From the UHGV virus genome UHGV-0090882: 40,500 nt of DNA; one strand, written 5' to 3'. The position numbers and the translations under genes were made by a program. The notes under the pieces were generated by a model. The model was not told the DNA's origin. It saw nothing but the letters and a program-made list of their open reading frames with translations, and searched no databases. Shown one piece after another: positions 6,726-35,016 of this stretch (positions are counted from its first letter, which is position 1; every line of letters starts with the position of its first letter). Source of the DNA: a virus.

Positions 6726-6742
6726 ATTACCTTTCAGGTAAT
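6726..6742. promoter_or_regulatory. Operator-like 17-bp palindrome ATTACCTTTCAGGTAAT (site 1)
   Basis: Perfect inverted repeat TTACC-N5-GGTAA upstream of the antirepressor promoter. Confidence 0.5.
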
Positions 6743-6778
6743 TTGCAAAACGTGCTGGATAGCAAACAAATTATTTGC

Positions 6779-6798
6779 TACTGTATAAATATACAGTT
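6779..6798 (+). promoter_or_regulatory. LexA (SOS) box TACTGTATAAATATACAGTT
   Basis: Exact CTGT-N8-ACAG with AT-rich spacer, about 20 nt upstream of the start of 6818..7075. Confidence 0.7.
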
Positions 6799-6817
6799 AT
6801 TGCATGGAGAAGATAAG

Positions 6818-7075
6818 ATGCAGCAGTATCACTATCCACTGGAAGACGGATTTACCGAAAGGATTCACACGCCGGGAGGCGTCAGGTCACTGGTGGAGGG
6901 ATCGCACTTGATGAAATTACTCCGGGATCTCGATAAGGATGGATTTAATGTCGATGGCCCACTTGCCGAACTGACTGCACTGATTAACTACGTCACCAGC
7001 TCACAGATGTCTATGCAGGATCTGCAAACACATCTCGACTATTGTGCCGAACAATTACGAAAACAAACCAGATAA
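6818..7075 (+). CDS. Small SOS-controlled protein, antirepressor candidate
   Basis: 85 aa from ATG 6818 (GGAG 9 nt upstream). Residues LMKLLRDLDKDGFNVDGPLAELTALINYV...DLQTHLDYCAEQ are paralogous to the C-terminus of the Bro-N protein at 7391..8101. The track start at 6695 lies upstream of the LexA box. Confidence 0.55.
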   Translation: MQQYHYPLEDGFTERIHTPGGVRSLVEGSHLMKLLRDLDKDGFNVDGPLAELTALINYVTSSQMSMQDLQTHLDYCAEQLRKQTR

Positions 7076-7105
7076 GGTTTGCAATTACCAAATGGAGTGC
7101 TTATA

Positions 7106-7122
7106 TTTACCTTTGCGGTAAA
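7106..7122. promoter_or_regulatory. Operator-like palindrome TTTACCTTTGCGGTAAA (site 2)
   Basis: Inverted repeat inside a larger inverted repeat (GGAGTGC ... GCACTCC). Confidence 0.45.
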
Positions 7123-7212
7123 TTTACATCGCACTCCTCTTGTGCCATAGTAATCGGGCACTGGCAAAATCCAGTGCCGGGATTGGCGTCCCGAGTTACT
7201 AAGTGGCGCATA

Positions 7213-7234
7213 CCACGCCAGACGTGGTTTTTTT
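7213..7234 (+). terminator. Putative weak rho-independent terminator
   Basis: Stem CCACG / CGTGG followed by T7. Confidence 0.35.
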
Positions 7235-7390
7235 ATGCGTTAAGCACAGCTATATCCGAATTATGGTGGGCTGGGCAGGGGTCCGAAAGGACGCCGGTAC
7301 CACTTAGGCCGGTACGCCAACCTTGTCCAGTTCACCACCAGTAATTGGCGTTGCGGTGGTGATTAAAATCACTAAGTGGAGATAACCACC

Positions 7391-8101
7391 ATGGCTAATG
7401 CTCAAACTGCCATCTTCAAATTTGAATCTGTTAACCCTATCCGTTCCATCATTATCGATGGCCAACCATGGTTTGTAGCCCAAGACGTTTGTAGTGCGCT
7501 GCGTATCCAAAACGTCACCCAAGCACTTGAAAAACTGGATGATGATGAAAGGTCTATGTTCAACATAGGGCATGAACATCGTGCAATTTTTGACAGCCGA
7601 GTAAAAGAGATCAACATCATCTCCGAGTCAGGCCTCTACACACTGATCCTCCGCTGCCGCGATGCGGTGACACCAGGCACTACCCCCTACCGCTTTCGTA
7701 AATGGGTTACAGGTGAGGTTCTTCCTCAGATCCGCCGCACCGGAAGTTACATTAAAAACTCGCTCCCGCAGGAAGAACGCATAAAGATGGTTGCCGACCA
7801 GGTAGCCAGCGCCACAGCATCAGCAGTGATGCAGGCAATGAAGGTAGAGAACAAAACCTACAGCGCCCCACTGAAGCCCGGCTACCGCAGCCTGATTCAT
7901 TCGCCGTCTGGTGTTCTCGGCCTGACGGAGAACTCACTGCTGATGAATCTGCTGAACCAGTTACAGGAAGACGGGCACGACGTATCGGGCGCGGCGGCGG
8001 AACTGACCACCATGTTCTGCTACATCGTCGGTGTGAGTAAATGCCTGCGTGATATCCAGACCCACGCGGAATACATCAACGACAAGGCAGGGGTCTTCTG
8101 A
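7391..8101 (+). CDS. Antirepressor, Bro-N domain protein
   Basis: N-terminus FKFESVNPIRSIIIDGQPWFVAQDVCSAL...ISESGLYTLILR is Bro-N-like; C-terminal domain paralogous to 6818..7075. ATG at 7391. Confidence 0.6.
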   Translation: MANAQTAIFKFESVNPIRSIIIDGQPWFVAQDVCSALRIQNVTQALEKLDDDERSMFNIGHEHRAIFDSRVKEINIISESGLYTLILRCRDAVTPGTTPYRFRKWVTGEVLPQIRRTGSYIKNSLPQEERIKMVADQVASATASAVMQAMKVENKTYSAPLKPGYRSLIHSPSGVLGLTENSLLMNLLNQLQEDGHDVSGAAAELTTMFCYIVGVSKCLRDIQTHAEYINDKAGVF

Positions 8102-8172
8102 CGGGCGGCGGCACAGGGATGTGCCTTTAAATAATTCTGTACGATTGCAGACAGGGGGGTGAATAGAGTACT

Positions 8173-8189
8173 ATTACCTTACGGGTGAT
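8173..8189. promoter_or_regulatory. Operator-like palindrome ATTACCTTACGGGTGAT (site 3)
   Basis: One mismatch to the palindrome; left 14 nt identical to site 11. Confidence 0.4.
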
Positions 8190-8317
8190 CCATAGCGATT
8201 AGGCACCGATACAGGAGGAGCCCACATGAGAAAATTTGACGAGTACGAAGGCGTTTAACATTCGGATAGTTTAATGACGGGGCCATTAGGCCCCGTTTTC
8301 ATGTCTGGAGACAGTTT

Positions 8318-8857
8318 GTGTTAAGTGAAGAAATGCAATTTGCCATGGCTGTGGCTCAAATCGTAAGTGCAGTCGCGGTTTCGCTTGGCTTGTTCATAGC
8401 TATCGCTACTATTATTTATAATGTAAATACAGCGAGAAAAGTACACACTTCAGTATTCCTTGGTGAAAGCAGGTTTGATGTAGATTATAAGAAAGGCCTA
8501 TCTACTATGCGCCGCATTCACGAATCGAACAAATCATTCCGCTCTTATATGTATCCAAGCAATGGGCAGGCTGATCTTACGGATGAAGAAAAGATAGAGA
8601 AGAGAGAAATAATTTACTGTCTAGGTTTCTACGAACGCATGGCTGTGAGCGTGAAGCGGAAAACTTATGATGAGACCATGATTAAGGAAGTATTTTACAG
8701 CTCCGTTGTAAATAACTATCAGATTGCGCTACCTCTTATACAAGCTATTAGAGAAAAAGAAAACATAAACACATATTTTAAAGAATATGAATGGTTGGCC
8801 ACACGATGGAAGGATTGTCCATTGAAGGATAAATCCCCGTGGTACAAGTTTTGGTAA
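8318..8857 (+). CDS. AT-rich moron: membrane-anchored protein of unknown function (candidate superinfection-exclusion/abortive-infection effector)
   Basis: Opposite strand to flanking virion genes; one N-terminal TM helix then a ~140-aa soluble domain; own terminator; visibly lower GC than neighbours. ATG at 8333 may be the true start. Confidence 0.6.
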   Translation: MLSEEMQFAMAVAQIVSAVAVSLGLFIAIATIIYNVNTARKVHTSVFLGESRFDVDYKKGLSTMRRIHESNKSFRSYMYPSNGQADLTDEEKIEKREIIYCLGFYERMAVSVKRKTYDETMIKEVFYSSVVNNYQIALPLIQAIREKENINTYFKEYEWLATRWKDCPLKDKSPWYKFW

Positions 8858-8880
8858 GCCCGCGACGCGGGCTTTTTTGT
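8856..8880 (+). terminator. Rho-independent terminator of the moron gene
   Basis: Stem GCCCGC / GCGGGC followed by T6, directly after the stop. Confidence 0.6.
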
Positions 8881-8918
8881 GTCTGCGGATTCCCGCCCGG
8901 GTGGCGGTGGCATTCGTT

Positions 8919-8942
8919 AAAAACAAGGCCGCGAAAGCGGCC
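8919..8942 (-). terminator. Rho-independent terminator of the minus-strand virion operon
   Basis: Stem GGCCGC-gaaa-GCGGCC with an A-run on the plus strand 5' side (U-run in the minus transcript). Confidence 0.5.
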
Positions 8943-8943
8943 T

Positions 8944-8955
8944 GTGACATGTCAC
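8944..8955. repeat. 12-bp perfect palindrome GTGACATGTCAC (copy 1 of 3)
   Basis: Overlaps the stop of 8952..9248 and abuts a terminator; identical copies at 26506 and 28771. Confidence 0.5.
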
Positions 8956-9248
8956 GTTCCTTTTCTGAATGATAGCCGTTCGAAAAATGATGACATTCCA
9001 CCGCAGACAATAGCAAAGATGATCCCACCAAAGAAGAGAAGGCCAGCCTGCCACCACTCCCACCGCCATACATCCACAGCACCAACCATACCAACAATCG
9101 CTCCAACAAATGGAATATAGCTCACGATGAAAGCAATGGGGGCTGCAATTATCCAGTGCAATCCCCACCATGATTCAAGCCCAGCCATAATTGCTGCCAA
9201 CTGAAAAAGGCCAACGACGATATAAACAATGAATCCTATCGCTTGCAT
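8952..9248 (-). CDS. Small polytopic membrane protein of unknown function
   Basis: 98 aa, about 3 hydrophobic helices; last gene of the injection-protein operon. Confidence 0.45.
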   Translation of the reverse strand: MQAIGFIVYIVVGLFQLAAIMAGLESWWGLHWIIAAPIAFIVSYIPFVGAIVGMVGAVDVWRWEWWQAGLLFFGGIIFAIVCGGMSSFFERLSFRKGT

Positions 9249-9261
9249 GTAGTCACCTATT

Positions 9262-9431
9262 TACCCAGTAAAAATCAGAGGCCTCCCCTCAATAAGGCTT
9301 GCAACAAGAACTATTCCCTGCACAACAAAGATGAACCAGCAAATAGCTTGAGTCTGAGGGTTAAGAAAATATTTGTAGCGGTCAATAAATAACAACCCAC
9401 CAGAAATTATCACACTCAAAATAATTAAAAA
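9262..9431 (-). CDS. Possible very small membrane protein (about 56 aa, GTG start); not in ORF track
   Basis: Open frame found by reading the reverse strand between 9248 and 9444; almost entirely hydrophobic. Confidence 0.25.
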
Positions 9432-9443
9432 CACAACACTTCC

Positions 9444-11918
9444 TTATTGCGGAGTGACATCCTGAGGTCGCCACCAGTATGTCTGATTAAACTCTTTCTT
9501 CGAACGTTGCTCCATTTTACGCAAATAGCCTGGTGAAAAATACTCCTGCATCTGGTTAAAGATCATATGATCGAGAGCCGCCTTTAAGTACCAGAGATTC
9601 GCACCTGGCATCAAACCTTTCCCCAGCTTCACCAGATCACCACCAGTCTGCTCACTCTTCCCTTCCACAGCATTTAACGGTATGCCCTGAGCAATCTTCA
9701 CTACGTCATCAACCAGACCAGCTACCGGGCCAAGCATCGACGCCAGCGCGCCGCTTCCGTACCTAGTGTGATCTGACAATAAAAAGTCACCGTAAAGGCC
9801 AAGGCCACCACCTTTCAGTAGAGCACCAAGCCAGAATTTTGCGGCACCTTCTCCTGTCATCTCTCGAGGATTACGACCAGACGCAAGGTCGTTAAGTTGC
9901 TGCGACAAAGCGCCAAGAATGGTCGTACTGGCAATAAACGTCGCAATATATGCCGCACGCCCACCAGCAGACGGCATACCCATAGCGCGTGACCAGTGAC
10001 GCATAACAACCGAGATAGGGAACGATTTAAACAGGAAAACACTTCTCGTTAATTCACCTTTCCATGTTCCACGCTGAATACCAGAACCGGTTATCAGTTG
10101 CTCACGTGCTCCCGGTGTAATAACAGCCATATCAACTTCTTCAGTTACGGCACCGAGCAGTTTACGCATTGCCTCAAATTTCACTCGTTCAGGCTCACCA
10201 AGATGTTTAACTGCTGAATCAGGGATACGCATAATGCTTTCCGGTGTCAGCATCGTATTATTACCGTTCCCCCAGTCCTCCTGTTGCGCCAGCTTCCATA
10301 CGCTCCAGTCTGTGTCAGTAATCCCTTTGCTTTTCAGGATACGAAAATCAGAGTCATCGAGGCTACGAAGGTCTGGTGTCCGTGACACTACTTCTCCCAG
10401 GCTTCCCATCATGGTTACGCCATAGGCGCGCTTGTGCGCATCTGACCATGCTGTAAGCCCACTGGCACGCATTACGGCCGTTGCCGCCCAACGAGACACT
10501 GACGGCCCCATATTATCCATCGCCCAGCGGTTAACGCTGCCAAGTAGAGATTCCATCGCCAGACCAGCGCGGCGCGCCCGCGCAAGTTCTGTACGGTTCG
10601 TTGGGTCCATAGCTTCAAGCTGGTTGCGGAATAACTGGTTCATTGGAAGGTTGGTAACCTTCGCAGACAGATACATGGTTCCAAGATCAGAGAACGATGA
10701 CAGCAACGCGGATCCGAGTCTGCTGGCAACCAGCCAGTTGCGGATATTGTCAGACCATCGCGCGATGTGCGGATTCGCTACAGGCTGTGTCTTTCCAGAA
10801 ATAAAGTTGTACAGATTCTCTGTGTTGTTCGCCAGCCGCTCGACTTTACCGGTTTTACTCGGGTTAGCTGTTGCCGTTTCTGCCTTAACCTGATCAAGAA
10901 GGGAGCGGAAAACATGATCGGGGTTTGGGCCATATGTTTCCACCAGTGCAATATCTTTACTGATACCTTCCAGGTGACCGACCATGATTTCCCATAGAGA
11001 GCGATCGCCATAAAGTTGCTGATATTGCAGATAGGAATCTGCATCTTTGAAATGTATCTGTCGTGATGCATTACCACGGTTAGCACGTGCGCCGGAAATT
11101 CGCATTCCGGTATCAGTAAGCTTATTCAGCCCACCAGTAGCGATCGTGTTATAAGCCTCTCCAAGAAATGCAGACAACTCGGCATCGTTCATCAGTTGTC
11201 CATCGGCTCGGGTATAATATTTGCGATCCAGCTTACCTATAACATCGCTAACCCATTTATCTTTTGATACCGCCCCAACCTTTTCCATAGAATGATGTTG
11301 AGGGATCCCCCAGTTTTCGAGATAGCCAATGTCCCCACCAGCATCATTAAACCGGCGGCGGAGTAGATCTGTCACTTCTCTCCACGCCTTAGCACCTTTT
11401 CTTGCTTTAGCATTGCCAGTATTTTGCCCTCGCATTTCATATACCAGGTCACGCACGCCCGCTTCATCTTCAAACAGGCCAAAAAAGCGAGGATCAACTG
11501 CTTCGAATGCCTCCTGCAATTGACTCAATGCATAATCACGAGTGGCTTTTGTTCTGGACTCAACAGAGAGGAAATTCGATTTACCGTCTGCATTAAAAGC
11601 AATAGTACGGTTAAGAGCGCCAAGTTTCCCATCAGCCCCTTGATAGCTATTGATAAATTTATCCAATCTCTGACGTGCGGCTATAGTAAGAGCCACACGA
11701 CGTTTCTTTAATGCCGCTTCTCGCTGTAATTCTTCAGATGCCAATTGTGCTGCACGATACAGCCGCTCTGACTCGGAAAGTTGTCGCCACGACATAGGGT
11801 CATCACGAGCAATGGAGCGCATATTGCGATAAATGCGGTCTTCAATGTTCTGTATTTCTCGCGCCGTTAACGTGCGCTGCGCCGCCTGCTGGACCGCTTG
11901 TATACATTCCTGTCTCAT
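9444..11918 (-). CDS. Large internal virion / DNA-injection protein
   Basis: 824 aa in the block of large proteins between the tail tubular genes and the tailspike, matching the position of T7-type internal core proteins. Confidence 0.5.
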   Translation of the reverse strand: MRQECIQAVQQAAQRTLTAREIQNIEDRIYRNMRSIARDDPMSWRQLSESERLYRAAQLASEELQREAALKKRRVALTIAARQRLDKFINSYQGADGKLGALNRTIAFNADGKSNFLSVESRTKATRDYALSQLQEAFEAVDPRFFGLFEDEAGVRDLVYEMRGQNTGNAKARKGAKAWREVTDLLRRRFNDAGGDIGYLENWGIPQHHSMEKVGAVSKDKWVSDVIGKLDRKYYTRADGQLMNDAELSAFLGEAYNTIATGGLNKLTDTGMRISGARANRGNASRQIHFKDADSYLQYQQLYGDRSLWEIMVGHLEGISKDIALVETYGPNPDHVFRSLLDQVKAETATANPSKTGKVERLANNTENLYNFISGKTQPVANPHIARWSDNIRNWLVASRLGSALLSSFSDLGTMYLSAKVTNLPMNQLFRNQLEAMDPTNRTELARARRAGLAMESLLGSVNRWAMDNMGPSVSRWAATAVMRASGLTAWSDAHKRAYGVTMMGSLGEVVSRTPDLRSLDDSDFRILKSKGITDTDWSVWKLAQQEDWGNGNNTMLTPESIMRIPDSAVKHLGEPERVKFEAMRKLLGAVTEEVDMAVITPGAREQLITGSGIQRGTWKGELTRSVFLFKSFPISVVMRHWSRAMGMPSAGGRAAYIATFIASTTILGALSQQLNDLASGRNPREMTGEGAAKFWLGALLKGGGLGLYGDFLLSDHTRYGSGALASMLGPVAGLVDDVVKIAQGIPLNAVEGKSEQTGGDLVKLGKGLMPGANLWYLKAALDHMIFNQMQEYFSPGYLRKMEQRSKKEFNQTYWWRPQDVTPQ

Positions 11919-11923
11919 TTAAT

Positions 11924-19716: not shown

Positions 19717-20321
19717 CAGGACAACCTCGCAATGGTAAACTCGTCAACCGGTGGCAGTGGTTCCTGTGATTCATTCTGGCTATGCGAGCCAGCACTAAGA
19801 ATCACGCGATTGTACATATTGAGGGCAAACGTACCGAGGTCTGCATTCCCAGTCAGCGCCATGTTAATAGCTGCCGCAAGACGCCAGGCCAACGCCTCCA
19901 TAAAAATGGCATCAAACATGTTCACATCTGAAACGCGAGAGACATACTTGAGCCATGCCTGCGGCTGGTCTGTGTAGATCAACTTTCCTGTTCCGTTGGT
20001 GTCTGCACCAACTTCGTACTGAACGCGCATTGCTGCTGTTGGATTGCGTACACCAGGAAGCATAATTTCAATAATGCGCAGACAATCGGACGGGTACTGA
20101 TACGCATATTCCCAGTCAGGCGGTGGATTGCTCGTATCTGCAAGCGCCACGCGTTTGGTAGCAAAGTTCCAGTCAAAATCAGAAAGCACAGCATCACGGC
20201 AGGCCTCAAAGTGCAGCGAACATTCCCCCGCTTCCTTGCTGGCTTCCGTCAGGCTGTTAATGCTGCGGCTATTGCCAATATTGGACAGCGCACGATTGCA
20301 GATCTCTACTACAGAGGCCAT
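19716..20321 (-). CDS. Tail tubular protein A-like / head-tail adaptor
   Basis: 201 aa immediately upstream of the 823-aa gene. Confidence 0.45.
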   Translation of the reverse strand: MASVVEICNRALSNIGNSRSINSLTEASKEAGECSLHFEACRDAVLSDFDWNFATKRVALADTSNPPPDWEYAYQYPSDCLRIIEIMLPGVRNPTAAMRVQYEVGADTNGTGKLIYTDQPQAWLKYVSRVSDVNMFDAIFMEALAWRLAAAINMALTGNADLGTFALNMYNRVILSAGSHSQNESQEPLPPVDEFTIARLS

Positions 20322-25215: not shown

Positions 25216-25422
25216 TTACTGACCAAGCAGCGTTTTACCGCTGGTATTAGCGGTTGATGTGTCGCCCTGAGAACCGGTAAGCAGCGTAGAACTACGACCA
25301 GCAGCAGCGCGACGGCGACGAGTTTCTTCGTCGCGGGCATCAACAACGGCGGCATCCTGCTCCTGTGGTGCTGCCTGAACTTCTGGTGTTGCAGGCACTG
25401 ATGGTGAGCTACCCATGCACAT
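25216..25422 (-). CDS. Small protein upstream of portal
   Basis: Start trimmed to ATG 25422 (GGAG upstream); 68 aa, Ala/Arg-rich. Confidence 0.35.
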   Translation of the reverse strand: MCMGSSPSVPATPEVQAAPQEQDAAVVDARDEETRRRRAAAGRSSTLLTGSQGDTSTANTSGKTLLGQ

Positions 25423-25490
25423 ATCAATGACTCCGTACGCAATCAAATTATTACCAATTTAACCACATATGATTTATTTATCGTAGATAG

Positions 25491-25519
25491 TTGACATTTA
25501 ACGCACAAATTATTACCTT
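25491..25519 (+). promoter_or_regulatory. Putative plus-strand promoter (TTGACA -35) driving the non-coding region and tRNA
   Basis: TTGACA at 25491-25496 followed by an AT-rich -10 region (AATTATTACC) that overlaps operator site 4; same layout as the early-left promoter at 34973. Confidence 0.4.
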
Positions 25520-25528
25520 TCAGGTAAC
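25512..25528. promoter_or_regulatory. Operator-like palindrome ATTACCTTTCAGGTAAC (site 4)
   Basis: Core identical to site 1. Confidence 0.5.
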
Positions 25529-25548
25529 CAAAGAGTTCATTCCGGTTA

Positions 25549-25849
25549 CTAACCTGACTGGCTTGTCGTTAAATTGAACAGGTGGAGTGAGCTTTTATTT
25601 TGAGCAGTACGGCGTATGGCACATGCGCCGATAGCGGTCTGGATACGTTTAAGGGGCACCCTACCTTGCTCGGGCAAACGAACCAGGTAGCCGGAATGTG
25701 CAAGTCGAGCGGTTTTATTCCGCGCACGGGGATTCACCATCCCGGCGATTCGGTGTGACGCCTCGGAAGAGACGAGGGTGCAACGATGAGAGCATTTATG
25801 GAGCCGCGACAAAGTGTGGCGCCTTAACAGGCTAAGTGCTCTCAGCGTT
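25549..25849 (+). ncRNA. Candidate non-coding RNA / structured leader upstream of the tRNA
   Basis: About 300 nt with no plus-strand ORF of 60 aa or more, between a promoter-like element and the tRNA; several local inverted repeats. Confidence 0.3.
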
Positions 25850-25926
25850 GTGGCATTAGCTCAGTTGGACAGAGCAACCGCCTTCTAAGCGGTTGGTCGC
25901 AGGTTCGAATCCTGCATGCCACGCCA
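25850..25926 (+). tRNA. tRNA-Arg (anticodon UCU), phage-encoded
   Basis: Full cloverleaf readable by hand: acceptor GTGGCAT/ATGCCAC, D-stem GCTC/GAGC, anticodon stem ACCGC/GCGGT with loop CTTCTAA, T-arm GCAGG-TTCGAAT-CCTGC, 3' CCA encoded. Confidence 0.9.
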
Positions 25927-25969
25927 GAATCACGCCTAAGGACCGTGATGCCAGAAGTTCCAGGGGCTT

Positions 25970-26011
25970 GGCGGTGATGGTTTCCCTTGAAGGACTATCA
26001 CCGCCCTTTTT
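25970..26011 (+). terminator. Hairpin plus T-run downstream of the tRNA
   Basis: Stem GGCGGTGAT / ATCACCGCC (large loop) followed by CTTTTT. Confidence 0.45.
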
Positions 26012-26089
26012 ACAGCAGGACGCCATTGCGATGACTTCATGCTGTAAACCAGTACAGCCACGGAAGGCATAACTCATTGCTTCCAGTTC

Positions 26090-26113
26090 GCCCGGTTCGC
26101 CGGGCATTTTTTT
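26090..26113 (+). terminator. Rho-independent terminator
   Basis: Stem GCCCGG-ttcg-CCGGGC followed by A and T7; lies 17 nt before the RBS of the 26130 gene. Confidence 0.55.
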
Positions 26114-26129
26114 AAGGTGAGATTAGACT

Positions 26130-26501
26130 ATGAGTGACAAAGACATTGAATCTGAAATTCAGGCTAAAGGTTTAGCCGCGCCGCGCGTTACGCCAGACCA
26201 TATCGAGAGCATTATTGCTCAGGAGGCATATTTCACAGCAGAAGATGGTGTCTTTGGCGTAGCCATAAAAGCGAAACATACTGGCGGAGAGGTAAACTAC
26301 CAGCCGCACGAATCACTTTCTCTGCTGACGTTCTGCGTTCTGGTGCTGCGCAACGGCTTCACCGTCACCGGAGAGAGCGCCTGTGCAAGCCCGGAAAACT
26401 TTGATGCGGAAATTGGTCGGAAGATTGCCCGGCAGAATGCTGTAAACAAAATCTGGATGCTTGAAGGTTACTTGCTGAAGCAGAAGTTAAGCGAGCAATA
26501 A
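26130..26501 (+). CDS. Gp49-like phage protein (N4 gp49 / Sf6 gene 66 family), function unknown
   Basis: 123 aa; C-terminal block LRNGFTVTGESACASPENFDAEIGRKIARQNAVNKIW recalled as that family. RBS AGGTGA. Confidence 0.5.
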   Translation: MSDKDIESEIQAKGLAAPRVTPDHIESIIAQEAYFTAEDGVFGVAIKAKHTGGEVNYQPHESLSLLTFCVLVLRNGFTVTGESACASPENFDAEIGRKIARQNAVNKIWMLEGYLLKQKLSEQ

Positions 26502-26505: not shown

Positions 26506-26517
26506 GTGACATGTCAC
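26506..26517. repeat. 12-bp palindrome GTGACATGTCAC (copy 2 of 3)
   Basis: Four nt after the stop of 26130..26501, immediately before a terminator hairpin. Confidence 0.5.
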
Positions 26518-26549: not shown

Positions 26550-26591
26550 TCCTCACCAGAGGATATCTCCGTCATTATCCCCGCTAACGGA

Positions 26592-28067: not shown

Positions 28068-28660
28068 TGATTACCATCCTGACGTTCTTTGAGTCGCTTC
28101 CTGGCTGCTGCTATGCGATCAGCAATTGTCACATTCACATTAACATCCAGGCGTTCTTTGAATGCGTTGACGTCGACGTGCTTACCAATCAGTTCGAGGT
28201 TCTTCACCTTGTCAGGCCATTTAATTTTTTTGAGGATTGTCTCTATCGAATCCTCGTTCATGTTCATGATGGTCGATGACAGATCAAAGCCGCTAAGCGT
28301 AGTGCGCCAGATTTTCGGCCACTCGCGGATTGGCTTAAGGCTCCCATCGTCGTTGAGGATGTCTATCACGTCCATCTGGTCGATCTCCACCAGGCGCATG
28401 AGAACGTAATCAGCACTGACGCGCATTCGTTTGTTGCGCTCCTCCATCAACTCGGCAATCCGTTTTTGAATGCGTTCATCGCGCATCATGACACTGGCTT
28501 TAACTGCCGCTGTATTTGGGGAGAATCCTGCATTAATCGCTGCCTGAGTCTGGTTTTCAGGCGTTTTGATGTATGACTGGCAATAAGCCTCCTGCATTGC
28601 TGTTAGTGGCTTAAATTGCGTTGATTTGCGTTTATAGGCTTTAGGTTCAGCAGGCATCAT
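28064..28660 (-). CDS. terS: Terminase small subunit
   Basis: N-terminal LTAMQEAYCQSYIKTPENQTQAAINAGFS resembles small-subunit HTH regions. Start trimmed to ATG 28660 because the track's N-terminal extension reads through operator sites 5-6. Confidence 0.65.
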   Translation of the reverse strand: MMPAEPKAYKRKSTQFKPLTAMQEAYCQSYIKTPENQTQAAINAGFSPNTAAVKASVMMRDERIQKRIAELMEERNKRMRVSADYVLMRLVEIDQMDVIDILNDDGSLKPIREWPKIWRTTLSGFDLSSTIMNMNEDSIETILKKIKWPDKVKNLELIGKHVDVNAFKERLDVNVNVTIADRIAAARKRLKERQDGNQ

Positions 28661-28675
28661 AACCACCGTGGTAAT
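28659..28675. promoter_or_regulatory. Operator-like site ATAACCACCGTGGTAAT (site 5)
   Basis: One mismatch in the left arm; overlaps the terS start. Confidence 0.4.
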
Positions 28676-28676
28676 A

Positions 28677-28693
28677 GTTACCGTTGTGGTAAT
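28677..28693. promoter_or_regulatory. Operator-like palindrome GTTACCGTTGTGGTAAT (site 6)
   Basis: Tandem with site 5, centres 18 bp apart. Confidence 0.45.
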
Positions 28694-28710
28694 AGTATCA
28701 TGCAAAATAA

Positions 28711-28730
28711 AGCCGCCATAGTTGGCGGCA
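28711..28730 (-). terminator. Minus-strand rho-independent terminator between the nin-like block and terS
   Basis: Stem GCCGCC / GGCGGC with an A-rich run on the plus-strand 5' side (U-run in the minus transcript). Confidence 0.45.
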
Positions 28731-28770
28731 GTATTCAAACCCCATCAAATTCATCATGCATAATCTACTC

Positions 28771-28782
28771 GTGACATGTCAC
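28771..28782. repeat. 12-bp palindrome GTGACATGTCAC (copy 3 of 3)
   Basis: Overlaps the stop of 28779..29120 at the same register as copy 1. Confidence 0.5.
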
Positions 28783-29120: not shown

Positions 29121-29391
29121 TATTCACCTTTATCGCGAACACCTTTACCGGTTTATCTCCGAAGTGCGGATGTGTGATTGTCTTGATTTCATACCCTTCA
29201 TACGGGACGTCTATTCTGCGACTGGAGTCGTCGCGCTTCGGATATCCCTTTGTGATAATCAGGCGGTCATATTCCCGGAACATGATTCGCTTATTCCAGT
29301 AGTCATTACACAAGCGATACTCTTCCGTTTTCTCCCCGCGAATCATGGCATCGAAGTATTCACCTTTGACGGCAAGTTGCAGGTTAGCCAC
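29110..29391 (-). CDS. Hypothetical phage protein
   Basis: 93 aa, ORF track only. Confidence 0.35.
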   Translation of the reverse strand: MANLQLAVKGEYFDAMIRGEKTEEYRLCNDYWNKRIMFREYDRLIITKGYPKRDDSSRRIDVPYEGYEIKTITHPHFGDKPVKVFAIKVNIDG

Positions 29392-29671
29392 GACCTTCCT
29401 CCTTTGGCTTGTGAATTTGTATCGTCATGCCGCTTTGAGTGGTGACTACAACGACAGAACCAGGCTGAAGACTGTTAAGATTGAATGCTTCGTAAAACGA
29501 AGCCAAGGCCAGCGCTTTTTTATTCTTTCGGTTCCACCAACGCCATCCATTGCTACAGGCTACACTGACAATCCACTGTCCACTCCTGTAAGCCATATAA
29601 AACCAGATGAGCAAAACCTGAATGAATGCTATCCAGTCAATAATCGTATATTTCGCGAAGGAGACCATCAA
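29384..29671 (-). CDS. Hypothetical small protein with hydrophobic N-terminal half
   Basis: 95 aa, ORF track only. Confidence 0.3.
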   Translation of the reverse strand: MMVSFAKYTIIDWIAFIQVLLIWFYMAYRSGQWIVSVACSNGWRWWNRKNKKALALASFYEAFNLNSLQPGSVVVVTTQSGMTIQIHKPKEEGRG

Positions 29672-30246
29672 TTAACCTCCTGCGGCGGTTCCGGTAGAGG
29701 CATCCAGTACAAGGCGTTCCCTAACCACGATAAAGTGCCGTCGCTCAACTCCACGTATTCCCCTTGTACCTGTCCTGCCATATACTCGCCGTGCTTTGAA
29801 TAAATTAAAATCCAATCATCTTGAGCGGGCATTCGCTCACTACAGCTTATCCAACCATCCGGAGTTACCGGATAGTTGCCCGACAGCTCGTTCAACTTGT
29901 AAGTTTGGCTTACAGGTTCGGCTTCCAGTTCTGCAATGCGCTTCTCTGCAGCTTCCAGCTCAACGCGCAGCTTCCCTACCGTTAGCGCAATTTCCTCGTT
30001 CTCCTGGTCGCGGCGTTTGATGTATTGCTGGTTTCTTTCCCGTTCATCCAGCAGCGCCAGGACGGTTTCTGGTCCGGTCAGAAATTTGAAGGCGTTGAGC
30101 GCATCAATATCCACACCGTAATCCTTAAGTTCCTGTTCACTTAACAAATCATCATCAACTGGCAACATTAACAGGCGTTCCATTGCCGGAATTGCACGTT
30201 CTGCCGCCTCACGCAGTGCCTGATAGTCAATTGTCATTCTCGCCAT
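29668..30246 (-). CDS. Ea22-like protein with C-terminal DUF551-like domain
   Basis: Coiled-coil N-terminal half and C-terminus ending ...LSWLGNALYWMPLPEPP, recalled as DUF551. Confidence 0.5.
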   Translation of the reverse strand: MARMTIDYQALREAAERAIPAMERLLMLPVDDDLLSEQELKDYGVDIDALNAFKFLTGPETVLALLDERERNQQYIKRRDQENEEIALTVGKLRVELEAAEKRIAELEAEPVSQTYKLNELSGNYPVTPDGWISCSERMPAQDDWILIYSKHGEYMAGQVQGEYVELSDGTLSWLGNALYWMPLPEPPQEVN

Positions 30247-30911
30247 CCTTCACAGTTGTAATCACTACAGCCTTCAAAATCATATGGGCTGTACTGCCAG
30301 GTGATTTTTCCGCAATGCGGACAATTCCAACGCACCTTCCCGCTTCGCGACTTCTTTCTTCTGTTCTGCTCTTTCAACCAGTCAGGCATGACCAAACCTG
30401 CGCCCTGAACCATTGTTCTGCGGTTAAAGTTATTGATATTGAACGTCCGGCGCTTTGCTGCATCGGCGATGGAAAATGGCAACCAAACTATTCCTGGTTC
30501 GTTTTTGTTGGCGACGCTAAAGATGGTCGCTTTACTGAAGTCATCTGTTGGCAATCCACCGTGTTGAAGCCAGTAAACATCGTTGCCGTTCCAGCTACCT
30601 TTTTTGTAGGCTACATACGCAGTGCAATCTGACTCAATCAGGCTTTCTGTAGGGATGTACTGGCAATCAACGTGCCACACAGCCATTGCATCCACACTAT
30701 CGGCACAAACAGGCTGATCGATATCTCGCCCACAATTCCAGGCTTTTAGGGCTTCTTCCAGCGTGTAAACATGAGCGCGATCGATATCAGAACTGTAACC
30801 ATTGCCGTTATGGCAATGGAATGAGGCGTTATTACCCACAGTTTCACGCAAACACATCATGTAAAAACGGTTGCTCACTGGTTGCCTCCTTTGCGAAGCT
30901 GTTCCGCCCAT
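30234..30911 (-). CDS. Hypothetical Cys-rich protein
   Basis: C-terminal CPHCG...C...C cluster; start ambiguous (ATG 30911 or ATGATG 30860). Confidence 0.4.
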   Translation of the reverse strand: MGGTASQRRQPVSNRFYMMCLRETVGNNASFHCHNGNGYSSDIDRAHVYTLEEALKAWNCGRDIDQPVCADSVDAMAVWHVDCQYIPTESLIESDCTAYVAYKKGSWNGNDVYWLQHGGLPTDDFSKATIFSVANKNEPGIVWLPFSIADAAKRRTFNINNFNRRTMVQGAGLVMPDWLKEQNRRKKSRSGKVRWNCPHCGKITWQYSPYDFEGCSDYNCEGWRE

Positions 30912-31177
30912 TCTTCAAGGGATTTCTCCGCATATTCACCGGACAGGCCATCAATCGGGTGCGGTTCATTAGCCAACTCTTCTTTCGCTGACAGAATCAT
31001 GCGTGTAACGTCGAAAACTTCACGTAAAGACTTATTGATAAATCCGTGGTTGAAAGCAGCAGCAAGACGGCTTGCGGTATAGTTAATCCCCTCGTTGCGA
31101 GCCTCCGCACGAATTTCAGCCAGAAAAGCATCGGTGGCTGGAGTTTCGCTGTGGTGCAGGGCATCGTTGATAATCAT
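30875..31177 (-). CDS. Hypothetical phage protein
   Basis: 100 aa, ORF track only. Confidence 0.35.
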   Translation of the reverse strand: MIINDALHHSETPATDAFLAEIRAEARNEGINYTASRLAAAFNHGFINKSLREVFDVTRMILSAKEELANEPHPIDGLSGEYAEKSLEEWAEQLRKGGNQ

Positions 31178-31186
31178 TGCAGCAAC

Positions 31187-31423
31187 TCAGGCCTGCCCTG
31201 CATCCGTGACCGACACATGCTCAAGAGTTACAGCCATTGCATGTTTCAGCCCAGCATTCTCCGCCGCCAGCGCATTAGCACGCACCAGTTGCACTTCCAG
31301 TTGCGTTGCCAAATCGCTGATCAGCTTTGCCACACTGCGCATATCAACGGCACCACATTCTGCTTTCAGTTCCGAAGCCATCTCATGCCCGGAGGAAACT
31401 AACCCTTTGATATTACTTTCCAT
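31187..31423 (-). CDS. Hypothetical phage protein
   Basis: 78 aa, ORF track only. Confidence 0.3.
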   Translation of the reverse strand: MESNIKGLVSSGHEMASELKAECGAVDMRSVAKLISDLATQLEVQLVRANALAAENAGLKHAMAVTLEHVSVTDAGQA

Positions 31424-31484
31424 CTTTACCCTCGCTTATCCACATAACTTATTGATTACATTGATAACTAAAAAGATCGTCGAT

Positions 31485-31829
31485 TCAGAACTCTTCGATA
31501 TTCCAGCCACCACCTGCTTTCTTTGGTTTAACCGTTACCCCGATGATTCGGAACGGATACTGATCTGCGGCGACTTTGGTTTTCACCCTGGCGTCGTCGG
31601 TCCAGAAACCTTTCACTTCGTGCAGTTCCATCTCTCCGGTGGCGAGCATCACAGCGAAATCGGGCGTATAAAACGTGTTATCAGCTAACCGCAGCTTGAT
31701 ACCCTCGAATCGATACCAGGCGATTTCCCCTGCACGTTTACGCTGCTCAAGGTGCTGGCAATACGCAGATTCTGTTTTGTTCATCTGTCCTGTTTTGAGT
31801 CGACCAAGAGCCTGTATCTGTTTTCTCAT
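31485..31829 (-). CDS. DUF1064-like phage protein (putative nuclease fold)
   Basis: 114 aa with ...YTPDFAV...HEVKGFWTDDARVK... pattern recalled for DUF1064; first gene after replication genes. Confidence 0.45.
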   Translation of the reverse strand: MRKQIQALGRLKTGQMNKTESAYCQHLEQRKRAGEIAWYRFEGIKLRLADNTFYTPDFAVMLATGEMELHEVKGFWTDDARVKTKVAADQYPFRIIGVTVKPKKAGGGWNIEEF

Positions 31830-31893
31830 GATTTACCCCTGAGGTAATTAAAAACCACATAAGACACGAAATCAATAGATCTAAGAATATTTT

Positions 31894-31910
31894 GTTACCT
31901 ATTGGGTAAC
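31894..31910. promoter_or_regulatory. Operator-like palindrome GTTACCTATTGGGTAAC (site 7)
   Basis: Perfect inverted repeat between the P-like gene and the nin-like block. Confidence 0.5.
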
Positions 31911-31946
31911 TATTGAGGCGTAAAAAAATGCGCTATCGCGCTGGTA

Positions 31947-32747
31947 TTACTTGATAAATCCTGCTGCCTTTCCTCGCCTGTATTCCTCCATCAGCCACTG
32001 CGCCGGTGTTATTCCCCCCAGGGTGGCGGCGTTAGGCATGCACCCGAAACTTCGCCCTGGTGGATGGTAAACGTCTCTCCCTGTGTCCGGAGGTGTACTC
32101 ATGGGTTCTGGCTTTGCCTGTATGCTGATCACCGGATCGGGTATCTGCTGTCCGGAAGCCACCTTTTTCGCCCAATCATCGAGCAGCCTGCGCGCGTGTT
32201 TCTCAACCTCAATCTCGCTAAGCTGGCGCTGATACATTGCACGGCGGGTATCACATACGACCCAGTACATAACCGGATGTCGCCACGGGAATCTTTCGGG
32301 ACCACCAGGATATAAACTTTTTTCCTTGCTGTACCGGTGAAACTCCGCCATCACATCGTCAATGGTGACGCCAAGAACCATCTTGCTGTCTTTACACCAC
32401 TTGATAAATTGCCCAGGCGACGGCCAGAACGGAGATTCACTGGCGCGGGCGTGGCGCATACCAGCAGAAACCTGTTCACGGGTTCGGATCCCCCCTTCGG
32501 CAAACGCAGCAATCCACTGCTGTTTTGCAGCAACTTCCTGCTCTGGCGTCTTCAGGTTGGTTACCACTGCCGCCGGAAACAGTTGTTTCAGCTGTTTGAA
32601 AAGGGCATCAACAAGCCTCTCTGCTGACATGTTCACCACGTTGTCATTGTTGGTGTACTGATGCTCATAACCTGACATGCGAGAAAGGGCTTCTCCGTCA
32701 CGGTTTTGTATCGCGGTAAAAACGTTGTTCACAAGAAATCCTCCCAT
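31947..32747 (-). CDS. Replication protein P-like (helicase loader)
   Basis: Block KQQWIAAFAEGGIRTREQVSAGMRHARASESPFWPSPGQFIKWCKD aligns by eye with lambda P (RRQWVLAFRENGITTMEQVNAGMRVARRQNRPFLPSPGQFVAWCRE); start overlaps the O-like gene. Confidence 0.75.
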   Translation of the reverse strand: MGGFLVNNVFTAIQNRDGEALSRMSGYEHQYTNNDNVVNMSAERLVDALFKQLKQLFPAAVVTNLKTPEQEVAAKQQWIAAFAEGGIRTREQVSAGMRHARASESPFWPSPGQFIKWCKDSKMVLGVTIDDVMAEFHRYSKEKSLYPGGPERFPWRHPVMYWVVCDTRRAMYQRQLSEIEVEKHARRLLDDWAKKVASGQQIPDPVISIQAKPEPMSTPPDTGRDVYHPPGRSFGCMPNAATLGGITPAQWLMEEYRRGKAAGFIK

Positions 32748-33544
32748 GCTTCAGGGCTGTTCCAGTGCGGAACGTTGTTATCAGGTAATGTTGATTGCTT
32801 CTGTCTGCTAATCTGCAGCCGCCTTGCCAGCTTCTGCTCCCACTGTGCCTGATGGTATGCCTTACCCTCAGCCATCCAGTAAATTCTGAACTCTGCAAGT
32901 TCCTGTGCCGTTGGCAGACTGTCCAGGTAGATCCCCTGCAATGAGCTTTTCCGAAGAAAATCATCTGATGGTTGCCATTGTTCATGCATGACAAATTTGC
33001 CTAATTGCCCTGGCCCACCAGGAGGAACAAAGTTATTCATCACGGCGTTGTTTGCGCCGGGGTCATGAGGCACAGAATCCCCGGTTTTTGTCCTGCTCTC
33101 CCTCTCTTGGTTAAATGACTGGTTATATGACTGGTTCTGGATCCCGTTTTTGGGATCATTCAACATCCCGTTTTTGGGATCATTCAACATCCCGTTTTTG
33201 GGTATATTCCCGTTTTCGGTAACATTACCGTTTTCGGGTTCATTACCCCCTTCCCGGTTGCCTTTAATGTTCCCGTTTTTGGTTATATTAAGAGAGAAAA
33301 CCCGCACTCTTTTCGTCGCTCCCTTTCTCTCTCCGGTATCTGAAATAAGCCCCATTTTCATGAGCGATATAAGCCCGGCCTGCACGGTTTTTTTATTCAG
33401 GCAAGTGTCTTTAACGAGGCGTTCTATGCTGGGGTAGCAGAGGTTATATTCATCGGCTCTGTCAGCCATCGAGAGCAGTATGAGCTTTAATGACGAGCTA
33501 CCTGGATCTGTCTCCCAGGCCCAATCTGTTGCATGTCTGCTCAT
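32729..33544 (-). CDS. Replication initiator O-like protein with iterons inside the gene
   Basis: N-terminal winged-helix-like region; the central coding sequence consists of the iteron repeats and encodes repetitive NG/KNG peptides. Confidence 0.7.
   Translation of the reverse strand: MSRHATDWAWETDPGSSSLKLILLSMADRADEYNLCYPSIERLVKDTCLNKKTVQAGLISLMKMGLISDTGERKGATKRVRVFSLNITKNGNIKGNREGGNEPENGNVTENGNIPKNGMLNDPKNGMLNDPKNGIQNQSYNQSFNQERESRTKTGDSVPHDPGANNAVMNNFVPPGGPGQLGKFVMHEQWQPSDDFLRKSSLQGIYLDSLPTAQELAEFRIYWMAEGKAYHQAQWEQKLARRLQISRQKQSTLPDNNVPHWNSPEAWEDFL
33141..33285. repeat. Origin iterons: about six copies of (A)TCCCGTTTTTGGGA-like inverted-repeat units
   Basis: Direct repeats at about 33143, 33167, 33191, 33209, 33227 and 33272; unit is the complement-equivalent of the lambda ori iteron TCCCTCAAAACGAGGGA. 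Confidence 0.7.
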
Positions 33545-33559
33545 GATTAATCTCCGCTA

Positions 33560-33760
33560 TCAGCTTGAATGTTGTGGGGTGGAATTAATCATGATCTGCT
33601 TAATCTCTGCCCTGATGCGACGGTTTGATTCCATGGTGCACTCAACACAGTGTCCGTTGTAAACCCAGCGTTCACTGTCATGTCCGTGCTTACATGGTTT
33701 TCCGGTGTAGTAGCGTTTAAGTCCGCGCTTTGCGGCATCAATACGTGTAATGATTTCCAT
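33560..33760 (-). CDS. Small Cys/His-rich (zinc-binding-like) protein between cro-like gene and replication genes
   Basis: ATG at 33760; 66 aa with ...CKHGH...NGHCVEC...; the longer track start adds a hydrophobic extension and is a TTG. Confidence 0.4.
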   Translation of the reverse strand: MEIITRIDAAKRGLKRYYTGKPCKHGHDSERWVYNGHCVECTMESNRRIRAEIKQIMINSTPQHSS

Positions 33761-33810
33761 GGTAAGCCCTGTTATTAGTATTGGGATTACGGTTATTTTG
33801 TGCTGACACA

Positions 33811-33840
33811 AAAAAAAAGATCAACCAGATTTGGTTTTTT
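33811..33840. terminator. Bidirectional intrinsic terminator between cro-like gene and replication genes
   Basis: A8 - AACCAGATTTGGTT hairpin - T6; a U-run follows the hairpin in either orientation. Confidence 0.45.
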
Positions 33841-33857
33841 ATTACCTTTGAGGTACG
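33841..33857. promoter_or_regulatory. Operator-like site ATTACCTTTGAGGTACG (site 8)
   Basis: Left arm and spacer resemble sites 1 and 4; right arm degenerate. Confidence 0.4.
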
Positions 33858-33911
33858 AATAGATATGAAAAGACCGCCGGGTGGCGGTCTACAGAGGGTT
33901 GTGGCTGGATA

Positions 33912-34142
33912 TCATGAGTAGAAGAAGTATGCCAGTTCTGCTTTTGAGCGCAGCCATTGTCTTGTTTTACAGGCTTTAAAAAGACCATTCATCAATACTT
34001 TACCTGGCATTTTGCGCTTACCTGTTAAGTGAGTCTGGATATAGTGACTCGTCGTTCCGGCTTCCTGTGCGAAGGCTTCACGCTCATCCGGAGTAAGTGC
34101 AAGCCAGTGCTTTTTGAAATCGAAATGTCCGTTATCGCTCAT
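33912..34142 (-). CDS. Cro-like small HTH regulator (YdaS/Cro type)
   Basis: 76 aa, divergent from the repressor gene, HTH-like segment, first gene of the replication-direction operon. Confidence 0.5.
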   Translation of the reverse strand: MSDNGHFDFKKHWLALTPDEREAFAQEAGTTSHYIQTHLTGKRKMPGKVLMNGLFKACKTRQWLRSKAELAYFFYS

Positions 34143-34209
34143 AGCTATTGCCTGATATTTATTTCAGATAATAAATATTCACCCATAAGGTAACAAAAAT
34201 CAAGGATAG

Positions 34210-34226
34210 TTACCTATGGGGTGCAT
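34210..34226. promoter_or_regulatory. Operator-like site GTTACCTATGGGGTGCA (site 9)
   Basis: Left 10 nt as in site 7; degenerate right arm; in the divergent cro/repressor interval. Confidence 0.35.
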
Positions 34227-34243
34227 TTACCTGTTGGGTAATA
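34227..34243. promoter_or_regulatory. Operator-like palindrome TTTACCTGTTGGGTAAT (site 10)
   Basis: Abuts site 9, giving a tandem pair in the divergent promoter region. Confidence 0.45.
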
Positions 34244-34296
34244 TTGCTTTAAATTGAATCATCTACTGATTCATATATGAGGCGATTTTCCAGAAA

Positions 34297-34881
34297 ATGA
34301 AAAGTATCCAGGACGTCCGCAGGCAAAATCTCAACGACTTGATCGACCGTGAATTCAATGGTGTTCAGACGCGGATGGCAGAAAAACTTGGAACTCAGGC
34401 AAATCTGGTAAACCGCTGGGCTCTTGGCAAGAAGGTTATCGGCGACCAGGTTGCGCGAAAAATTGAAGCTGCCGCCAATAAACCCCGTAACTGGCTTGAT
34501 ATCGATCGCTCGCTTTCTCAGGAAGGTTTTCAGCCTGTCGGCCCAAGCGACATTGGTCAGCTAGCGGCTCACAACCTGGAACGCTGGATGAGCGAAAGCC
34601 GCGACCTTTCAACACAGGGAAAACTTCACCGCGCATCCGGCGTCGCCCAGGTGACAATCAGCCGCCTGTTAAACAATGAGGTCAGCGTTTCCATTTCCAC
34701 CCTGGAGAATGTTGCATCTGCATTCGGGCGTCACGGATATGAACTACTGATTCACCCGCACGATCCTGCAACTATCAACTATGACCGCTCGCGCTACGCA
34801 TTGTTACCTGAAACCGAGAAAGCAAAGATCGAAAGTTACATTGAATTTGTCATCAACCAGAACGAAAAAAACAAACAATAA
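34297..34881 (+). CDS. Prophage repressor candidate: two HTH domains, no autocleavage (S24 peptidase) domain
   Basis: 194 aa; HTH-like segments near residues 20-60 and 110-150; no G-(D/S)-SM-P / Lys peptidase motif; own terminator downstream. Confidence 0.55.
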   Translation: MKSIQDVRRQNLNDLIDREFNGVQTRMAEKLGTQANLVNRWALGKKVIGDQVARKIEAAANKPRNWLDIDRSLSQEGFQPVGPSDIGQLAAHNLERWMSESRDLSTQGKLHRASGVAQVTISRLLNNEVSVSISTLENVASAFGRHGYELLIHPHDPATINYDRSRYALLPETEKAKIESYIEFVINQNEKNKQ

Positions 34882-34901
34882 AATCATATTTTTCAGTAAG
34901 T

Positions 34902-34926
34902 AAGCCGCCATTTGGCGGCTTTTTTA
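34902..34926 (+). terminator. Rho-independent terminator of the repressor gene
   Basis: Stem AAGCCGCC-attt-GGCGGCTT followed by T-run. Confidence 0.6.
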
Positions 34927-34937
34927 TTGTCTATTTA

Positions 34938-34954
34938 ATTACCTTACGGGTAAT
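34938..34954. promoter_or_regulatory. Operator-like palindrome ATTACCTTACGGGTAAT (site 11)
   Basis: Perfect; extends to a 19-bp palindrome AATTACC...GGTAATT; about 19 bp upstream of the -35. Confidence 0.5.
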
Positions 34955-34972
34955 TTTTTTAACTCATATCTA

Positions 34973-35001
34973 TTGACACCAAACCAAATACGCATAATTA
35001 T
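34973..35001 (+). promoter_or_regulatory. Early-left (pL-like) promoter
   Basis: TTGACA at 34973-34978 with -10 candidates in CATAATTAT 14-17 nt downstream; flanked by sites 11 and 12. Confidence 0.5.
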
Positions 35002-35016
35002 TACCTCAACGGTAAC
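35000..35016. promoter_or_regulatory. Operator-like palindrome ATTACCTCAACGGTAAC (site 12)
   Basis: Overlaps the -10/+1 of the early-left promoter; an extra GGTAAC half-site follows at 35024-35029. Confidence 0.5.

Follow-up and report, generated by a model that had tools for sequence, protein, structure and literature searches.

The window analysed here, the 40,500-nucleotide stretch of UHGV virus genome UHGV-0090882, is by sequence similarity a phiV10/epsilon15-like prophage of the genus Uetakevirus (epsilon15-like podophages). Across it the palindrome TTACCNNNNNGGTAA (TTACC-N5-GGTAA) recurs, for a corrected total of 14 motif-like sites in nine intergenic intervals, and these sites are very probably operators for the prophage repressor Rep (34297..34881; positions are those of the window unless another genome is named). 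Neither the motif nor its link to the repressor is new, since both stand in the sequence record of phage epsilon15; what is possibly new is (i) a fixed 62-base-pair (bp) bracket of operators, (ii) a proposed direct control of a late promoter, and (iii) a LexA box that replaces a downstream operator. The analysis thus mainly confirms a known system, i.e., that phiV10-type prophages, very common in Escherichia coli, share the distributed-operator design of epsilon15 and SPC32H, and it opens no new question. It maps operators and promoters precisely in a phage employed as an O157 reporter phage, corrects the start of phiV10 terS, and offers in the 62-bp operator pairs a testable geometry for genome-wide silencing by a tetrameric, non-cleavable repressor.

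The motif is matched exactly nine times in the window (15-bp cores starting at 6727, 7107, 25513, 28678, 31833, 31895, 34227, 34939 and 35001), against a mean of 0.03 and a maximum of 1 in shuffled sequence. With up to one mismatch the count rises to 13, against a shuffle mean of 0.65, through the addition of 8174, 28660, 33842 and 34179; a site with two mismatches at 34210 completes the set. A first-pass annotation of the window had listed 12 coordinates, all of which are real motif-like sites (eight exact, three with one mismatch, one with two), each quoted one base before the 15-bp core; the list was incomplete, however, having missed the exact site 31833 and the one-mismatch site 34179. 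Its claim of identical cores holds for 6727 and 25513 but not for its other two pairs, of which 8174 and 34939 are one base off and 31895 and 34210 differ at three positions. That every site is non-coding, as it had also stated, is correct only if terS starts at ATG 28657, the start annotated in epsilon15, SPC32H and Tyrion, indicated by alignment with them and lying directly after an operator pair; the phiV10 record instead starts terS at an upstream TTG (window 28657-28738, minus strand), which would place both 28660 and 28678 inside the gene.

The position-weight-matrix and shuffle scan proposed on that first pass was run with a 21-bp palindromic matrix trained on 13 of the 14 sites. Its top 14 positions in the window are all non-coding, in a window of which 9.75% is non-coding, and rank 15, with 10.4 bits at 5091, lies within coding sequence. 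This ranking is partly circular because the matrix was trained on 13 of the ranked sites; the non-circular evidence consists of the exact-match count and of an enumeration of every 5+5 inverted repeat with spacers of 0-12 bp, in which TTACC/N5 comes first with nine copies and the runner-up has three. Exact copies number zero in 50 kilobases (kb) of E. coli K-12, and four matrix matches there reach at least 12 bits, the highest 13.8. Since this background reaches 13.8 bits, the two weakest window sites, 34210 (12.7 bits) and 28660 (13.1 bits), stand on their adjacency (17-18 bp) to a strong site and on their conservation, not on their score.

The same layout recurs in six of the six Uetakevirus genomes examined, which stem from phages of E. 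coli, Salmonella, Enterobacter and Klebsiella. Exact copies number 11 in epsilon15, 10 in SPC32H and eight in phiV10, and in these three, as in the window, TTACC/N5 is the top 5+5 inverted repeat; with up to one mismatch allowed, Enterobacter phage Tyrion holds 15 copies and Klebsiella phage BUCT711 13, about 0.5 being expected in each. By the gene tables the exact copies in the relatives are intergenic, except for two in a doubtful Tyrion open reading frame (ORF) and the phiV10 terS extension. Over roughly 56 exact sites in the six genomes the half-sites remain TTACC/GGTAA; deviations break pairing and the arms show no covariation, and such invariance without stem covariation is, at the level of sequence, the signature of protein-DNA recognition. 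In the epsilon15 record (AY150271.2), seven protein_bind features bear the label 'repressor / lysogeny' and have the sequence ATTACC-N5-GGTAAT; they stand ahead of terS, ahead of the portal unit, at ant/tailspike, at three places after rep and at one before the nin-like unit, i.e., at the same places as in the window. Among them, 19895-19911 ('repressor') is the orthologue of window 6727, 2931-2947 of 25513, and 12-27 of the terS pair; four to five further epsilon15 motif sites carry no annotation. A full-text literature search for the motif string gave no match, and one on Uetakevirus repressor binding sites gave nothing relevant. The 5-bp operator spacers are A/T-rich in epsilon15, SPC32H and BUCT711 (AAAAC, ATTTT, TAAAA) and more mixed in phiV10, Tyrion and the window (TTACG, TCAAC, CCTGA), a split that parallels two Rep clades.

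In most of the nine intervals the motif stands at fixed positions relative to predicted sigma-70-like promoters. The layout common to the alignments after rep (A1) and before the nin-like unit (A2) is a rho-independent terminator, an upstream operator, 19 bp, the -35, 17 bp, the -10 and a downstream operator, with the -35 hexamer region CTATTGAC invariant and the -10 reading AATTAT or TTTAAT in the six-genome alignments. The downstream operator shares its first T with the final base of the -10 hexamer and so spans about -7 to +8; from the start of one operator to the start of the other is 62 bp in 11 of 12 cases across the six genomes (63 bp in the remaining one). Sequence between the bracketing operators has drifted, to a mean column identity of 53% in A1, while operators, -35 and -10 are invariant (A1-A5); in A1, both CTATTGAC and ATTATTACC are the same in all six genomes. 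Ahead of the p39 unit the order is operator 34939, -35 TTGACA at 34973-34978, 17 bp, -10 AATTAT at 34996-35001, and operator 35001, so that the TTGACA promoter noted on first pass is indeed flanked by two sites. On the minus strand, the p45/nin-like promoter runs from operator 31909..31895 through -35 TTGATT, 17 bp and -10 TTTAAT to operator 31847..31833, the spacer of which holds the Shine-Dalgarno sequence, with the nin-like ATG 3 nucleotides past the 15-bp core.

Elsewhere the geometry varies on the same theme. A -10 that ends on the operator's first T is also found at 7107, at 8174 (hexamers in Table 1) and at the terS pair, for which the predicted promoter is an extended -10 without a -35 (TGATACTAT on the minus strand of the window, TGTTACTAT in epsilon15); the pair sits between this element and the terS ATG, and 28660 covers the ribosome-binding site. 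Operator 25513 overlaps the -10 TACCTT of TTGACA(25491)-17, which reads toward the arginine transfer RNA (tRNA-Arg) gene and p03, and both TTGAC and the operator are invariant across the six genomes (alignment A4). For the interval between the cro-like gene and rep, two sites had been reported on first pass; 34210 and 34227, 17 bp apart, are confirmed, but a third, 34179, which falls within the spacer of the predicted cro promoter (TTGATT), had been missed, and all three are conserved in the six genomes together with TTGATT (alignment A3). Sites 34939, 31895, 33842 and 28678 each lie about 5-25 bp past a rho-independent terminator, and the distance from operator to -35 is fixed at 34 bp (e.g., 34939 to 34973; 32 bp at 33842). 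Weaker orthologues of 33842 occur at Tyrion 35365 and BUCT711 6032. Operator 6727 and the LexA box downstream of it are 54 bp apart, a spacing kept in epsilon15, SPC32H and phiV10. Fixed promoter positions, clustering at cro/repressor, and orthologous epsilon15 sites annotated as repressor-binding all bear out the operator reading first given to the palindrome, and the recurrence of the layout in six genomes agrees with the accompanying proposal of one regulator acting across early, replication, late and accessory units.

The candidate regulator matches SPC32H Rep (PDB 5D50_A) over its full length (phmmer E 4e-42, residues 1-190 versus 2-197), and a seven-protein alignment (A6) agrees with this. 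Pfam finds in it only helix-turn-helix (HTH) families, HTH_3 and related, and no Peptidase_S24 domain. These comparisons make Rep a non-cleavable repressor that has its HTH domain at the N terminus and has homologues in the Rep proteins of SPC32H and epsilon15; its identity to the latter is 42% overall and 54% in the N-terminal domain. An IMG/VR scan with the Rep alignment returned a 100% identical Rep in all of the best 80 of 361 relatives, and so gave no information on covariation. Passages of PMC9638917 and PMC9986798 divide SPC32H Rep into three domains, of which the N-terminal one binds DNA, the middle one serves dimerisation, and the C-terminal one serves both tetramerisation and the binding of Ant; on palindromic sites the protein is described there as a bound tetramer, its DNA-binding pairs being drawn from different dimers; a passage of PMC9986798 (2023) adds that the structural mechanism of SPC32H Rep repression 'has not been extensively characterized'. 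In phage vB_EcoP_ZX5, whose Rep is identical to that of the window, overexpression of Rep abolished free phage and lowered endolysin and holin messenger RNA by >99.9% (PMC9782041).

Two phages outside the genus tentatively link the N-terminal domain of Rep to the half-site. The cI of Pseudomonas siphophage PseuP_224 shares only this domain with Rep (39% identity), and all four copies of TTACC-N4-GGTAA in 31.7 kb of its sequence closely adjoin cI, two on the upstream and two on the downstream side. At least five TACC-N5-GGTA sites surround the cI of Psychrobacter phage pOW20-A, which is 40% identical to Rep in this domain. These cases suggest that the N-terminal domain would be the part that reads the half-site.

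Several observations weigh against the assignment of the 14 sites to Rep. The recognition helix of pOW20-A differs from that of Rep, which leaves the domain-to-motif link suggestive only, and the cI regions of H-19B and Burkholderia phage PhiBt-E264.1 (about 34-42% N-terminal identity) hold no TACC-type palindromes; Moraxella phage Mcat9 has one weak site only. One-mismatch matches in the 50 kb of E. coli K-12 number five, versus 0.75 predicted by shuffles. The 'repressor' features of the epsilon15 record may be predictions and not experimental results. The ant, portal and rep promoters lack a confident assignment, in that the ant hexamers could not be fixed, a generic promoter scan of 25380-26200 found nothing, and manual inspection fixed neither the portal nor the rep promoter. 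Also, the cro-like protein could share the same sites with Rep.

Repression by Rep would work as follows. Terminators would cut the genome into separate transcription units, most of which would start with a sigma-70-type promoter of their own, bearing the palindrome at the end of the -10, on the -10, or in the -35/-10 spacer; Rep bound at such an operator would block RNA polymerase, i.e., by promoter occlusion at each unit. A second operator 62 bp upstream (34939/35001, 31895/31833), or pairs 17-18 bp apart, would fit a tetramer holding two palindromes, either looped or side by side. Induction would be indirect, with DNA damage freeing the LexA box at ant, the Ant thus made taking Rep off the DNA, and all units being released together. 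Somewhat doubtful, and offered tentatively, is the joint form of this scheme, in which a Rep tetramer would bracket each early promoter through operators at about -62 and about +1 with a 62-bp loop, the late terS promoter and every other lytic unit would be repressed directly by Rep, and the LexA box would take the +1 operator position at ant, the upstream Rep operator there being kept at a conserved distance. If direct Rep control of all lytic units were true, the lytic programme of the genus would run without a lambda-type antitermination or late-activator cascade.

Other users of the motif have to be weighed against Rep. The repressor and Cro of a phage commonly share operators, as established for lambda and 434, and here the gene for the cro-like 76-residue protein adjoins the three-site cluster at 34179-34241; this protein, and not Rep, might then be the main binder of the dispersed sites, shutting down or timing the units in lytic growth. 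We consider this unlikely, since searches found neither a Pfam family nor any recognisable DNA-binding family in the cro-like protein, whereas two unrelated phages show the motif together with the Rep N-terminal domain, and in the epsilon15 record it is the repressor to which the sites are attributed. Use of the motif by a phage factor other than these two (the phage has AlpA-like and PerC-like genes), by a host factor, or by an RNA hairpin acting as a processing or termination signal is hardly to be credited. The densest cluster of sites is at rep/cro, and this, with the zero exact copies in host-type DNA, makes a host factor unlikely. Palindromes can fold into small hairpins, but those predicted here are weak (-1.1 to -6.1 kcal/mol), and with stems that are invariant and never covary the RNA-hairpin reading was rejected.

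A different role, and not a different binder, is raised by the four sites that closely follow rho-independent terminators: some sites, and especially the upstream operators among these, might serve mainly as roadblocks against read-through in the manner of the L5/Bxb1 stoperators, and not for promoter occlusion. Such a role would suit their location, but the sites are palindromic, so that no orientation bias is possible, and each 62-bp pair has a partner at -7..+8; this partner and the fixed distance to the -35 indicate promoter control, making the roadblock account of these sites quite improbable. A secondary roadblock role for the post-terminator operators is possible alongside promoter occlusion by Rep.

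Set beside known systems, the window comes closest to its own genus. The epsilon15 genome was reportedly described by Kropinski et al. in 2007 (Virology 369:234). Like epsilon15, the window has the same 15-17 bp palindrome ATTACC-N5-GGTAAT at orthologous intergenic positions with 62-bp and 17-bp spacings; unlike it, the window has less A/T-rich spacers and adds sites before the C4/Bro-N module and before the DUF4760 gene, but lacks two sites of epsilon15, one ahead of the lysis cassette (24704) and the third of those after rep. With SPC32H it shares a full-length Rep homologue, a near-identical Ant, the LexA box at ant and the absence of an autocleavage domain, together with a motif of which SPC32H has its 10 exact copies, whereas the window Rep allele is about 42% identical and an extra P1 immI-like module is present. 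The Rep-Ant-LexA switch of SPC32H is said to have been worked out by Kim and Ryu (2013, J Virol) and Kim et al. (2016, PNAS; PDB 5D4Z, 5D50). Judged by its sequence features, the window belongs to this Uetakevirus (epsilon15/SPC32H-type) Rep-operator-Ant system, all testable features of which are found in it: a full-length Rep, a small Ant between tail genes and tailspike, a LexA box, no S24 domain, and orthologous operators.

The likeness to P1 C1 put forward on first pass stands as an analogy in dispersed operators but not as membership. As in P1, one repressor would serve operators spread over many units (nine intervals), one of which carries a C4 RNA and an antirepressor (immI-type). P1 operators, however, are asymmetric 17-mers, and the window sites are two-fold symmetric; Pfam and PDB searches found no C1-type match for Rep, an SPC32H Rep homologue unrelated to C1, and inactivation would be by a LexA-controlled Ant. 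Membership in the P1 C1 family was therefore rejected, the repressor being unrelated and the sites symmetric. The stoperators of L5 gp71 and Bxb1 gp69 resemble the window sites in being many repressor sites in short intergenic regions genome-wide. Stoperators are asymmetric and orientation-dependent and act on elongation, whereas the window sites are symmetric and stand at fixed offsets from the -35/-10, and so they do not belong to that class. The likeness to lambda CI/Cro lies in the three sites of the divergent repressor/cro interval and in those beyond the repressor gene, which would control the recombination unit (leftward in lambda). Unlike lambda, in which operators are found only at OL/OR and the repressor undergoes RecA-stimulated autocleavage, the window has operators in nine intervals, including those of replication, nin-like, late and accessory units, no Peptidase_S24 domain, a repressor whose homologue is tetrameric, and no evident N/Q-type antitermination cascade.

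Table 1. Putative operators, predicted promoters and associated genes in the window (operators are assigned to Rep by motif; blank cells, nothing given).
Feature	Position	Strand	Basis or context
Putative Rep-type operator ATTACCTTTCAGGTAAT	6727..6741		Exact; divergent endosialidase-tailspike/ant interval
Perfect LexA box CTGTATAAATATACAG over presumed ant promoter	6781..6796	+	Conserved in phiV10, epsilon15, SPC32H
Ant, small Rep-inactivating antirepressor (by homology)	6818..7075	+	E 4e-47 to SPC32H anti-repressor, PDB 5D50 chain E
Predicted promoter TTGCAA-17-TATATT with putative operator 7107-7121	7079..7121	+	Promoter scan; exact motif
isrK-like small RNA	7158-7234	+	Rfam 67.2 bits vs gathering score 50
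C4 antisense RNA	7259-7342	+	Rfam 66.0 bits vs gathering score 45
Bro-N family putative antirepressor	7376..8101	+	Pfam Bro-N E 5.6e-20; 73% identical to phiV10 p23
Putative operator TTACCTTACGGGTGA	8174..8188		One mismatch; after TTGCAG-18-TACTAT, before DUF4760 gene 8318..8857
Putative operator	25513..25527		Exact; divergent interval, tRNA-Arg/p03 (+) vs p06-portal (-)
Putative operator pair, 28678 exact and 28660 one mismatch, 18 bp apart	28660..28692		Alignment A5
Predicted p45/nin-like promoter with two exact putative operators	31833..31909	-	Alignment A2; layout invariant in six genomes
Putative operator	33842..33856		One mismatch; just past cro terminator, 32 bp before TTGATC-18-CAAAAT; upstream of p42-DnaT-P replication unit
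Cro-like 76-residue protein, possible second binder of 34179-34241	33912..34142	-	Position only; 100% identical to phiV10 p41; 34142..33915 on the phiV10 map
Putative three-site operator cluster, cro-like gene to rep	34179..34241		34179 one mismatch, 34210 two mismatches, 34227 exact
Rep, proposed motif-binding repressor, 194 residues	34297..34881	+	100% identical to phiV10 p40; 34297..34878 on the phiV10 map
Predicted p39-recE/T-AlpA-PerC-methylase promoter with two exact putative operators	34939..35015	+	Alignment A1
Structural genes	terS (about 28657) down to 9447	-	phiV10 map
Replication genes	33760..31950	-	phiV10 map
nin-like block	from 31829	-	phiV10 map
Recombination unit	from 35035	+	phiV10 map
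Integrase	40450..39212	-	phiV10 map

Two distinct antirepressor modules adjoin in the window, an SPC32H-type Ant under LexA control and a C4/Bro-N module. A site had been said on first pass to precede the antirepressor; this is right for 6727, after which comes the Rep-specific Ant under its LexA box, whereas the Bro-N gene after 7107 belongs to the second module. The latter resembles P1 immI and occupies 7079-8101, with an operator-controlled promoter, an isrK-like Hfq-binding small RNA, a C4 RNA and the Bro-N antirepressor-like gene; both RNAs would be transcribed from the promoter predicted at 7107.

The gene map was made by mapping phiV10 proteins onto the window, of which 33500-36500 is 96-98% identical to the E. 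coli phages phiV10, PAS61 and phiv142-3. Host yfgH-yfgI, which adjoin guaA in E. coli K-12, fill the window from base 1 to about 1291, and this flank marks the window as a prophage integrated at the known attachment site near guaA. Compared with thousands of genomes, the flank (1-1291) is only about 90% identical to E. coli, and so the host is probably a divergent Escherichia lineage, not typical E. coli.

Several genes depart from their phiV10 counterparts. The tailspike (3503-6622, minus strand) is an endosialidase with beta-propeller, tail-spike, beta-barrel and S74 chaperone domains (E 1e-233), its likeness to the phiV10 tail fibre being limited to the first 162 residues; the domains and this limit together suggest specificity for a polysialic-acid (K1-type) capsule. 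The recombination genes are split into two ORFs (35486..36307 and 36304..37185, plus strand) where the phiV10 record has one RecE-RecT fusion; identity to phiV10 in the RecT-like half is only 73%. The place of the phiV10 DUF1382 gene, between adenine methylase and integrase, is taken in the window by an ORF (38412-39191, plus strand) for a calcineurin-like metallophosphoesterase of 259 residues. The tRNA-Arg, with anticodon TCT, is at 25850-25923 on the plus strand (Rfam 73 bits, with ARAGORN in agreement), and SPC32H annotates the same tRNA; the phiV10 p04 ORF is probably spurious because this tRNA occupies the opposite strand.

A second perfect palindrome, GTGACATGTCAC, unrelated to the operator, occurs in the window at 8944-8955, 26506-26517 and 28771-28782. 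Each copy stands 0-30 nucleotides short of a rho-independent terminator that closes a unit, respectively that of the tail operon, the convergence of tRNA-p03 and terL, and the nin-like block before terS. The relatives phiV10, epsilon15, SPC32H, Tyrion and BUCT711 all conserve this palindrome, which has zero copies in the 50 kb of E. coli and carries no annotation in the epsilon15 record; the ends of the Tyrion record fall within one of its copies.

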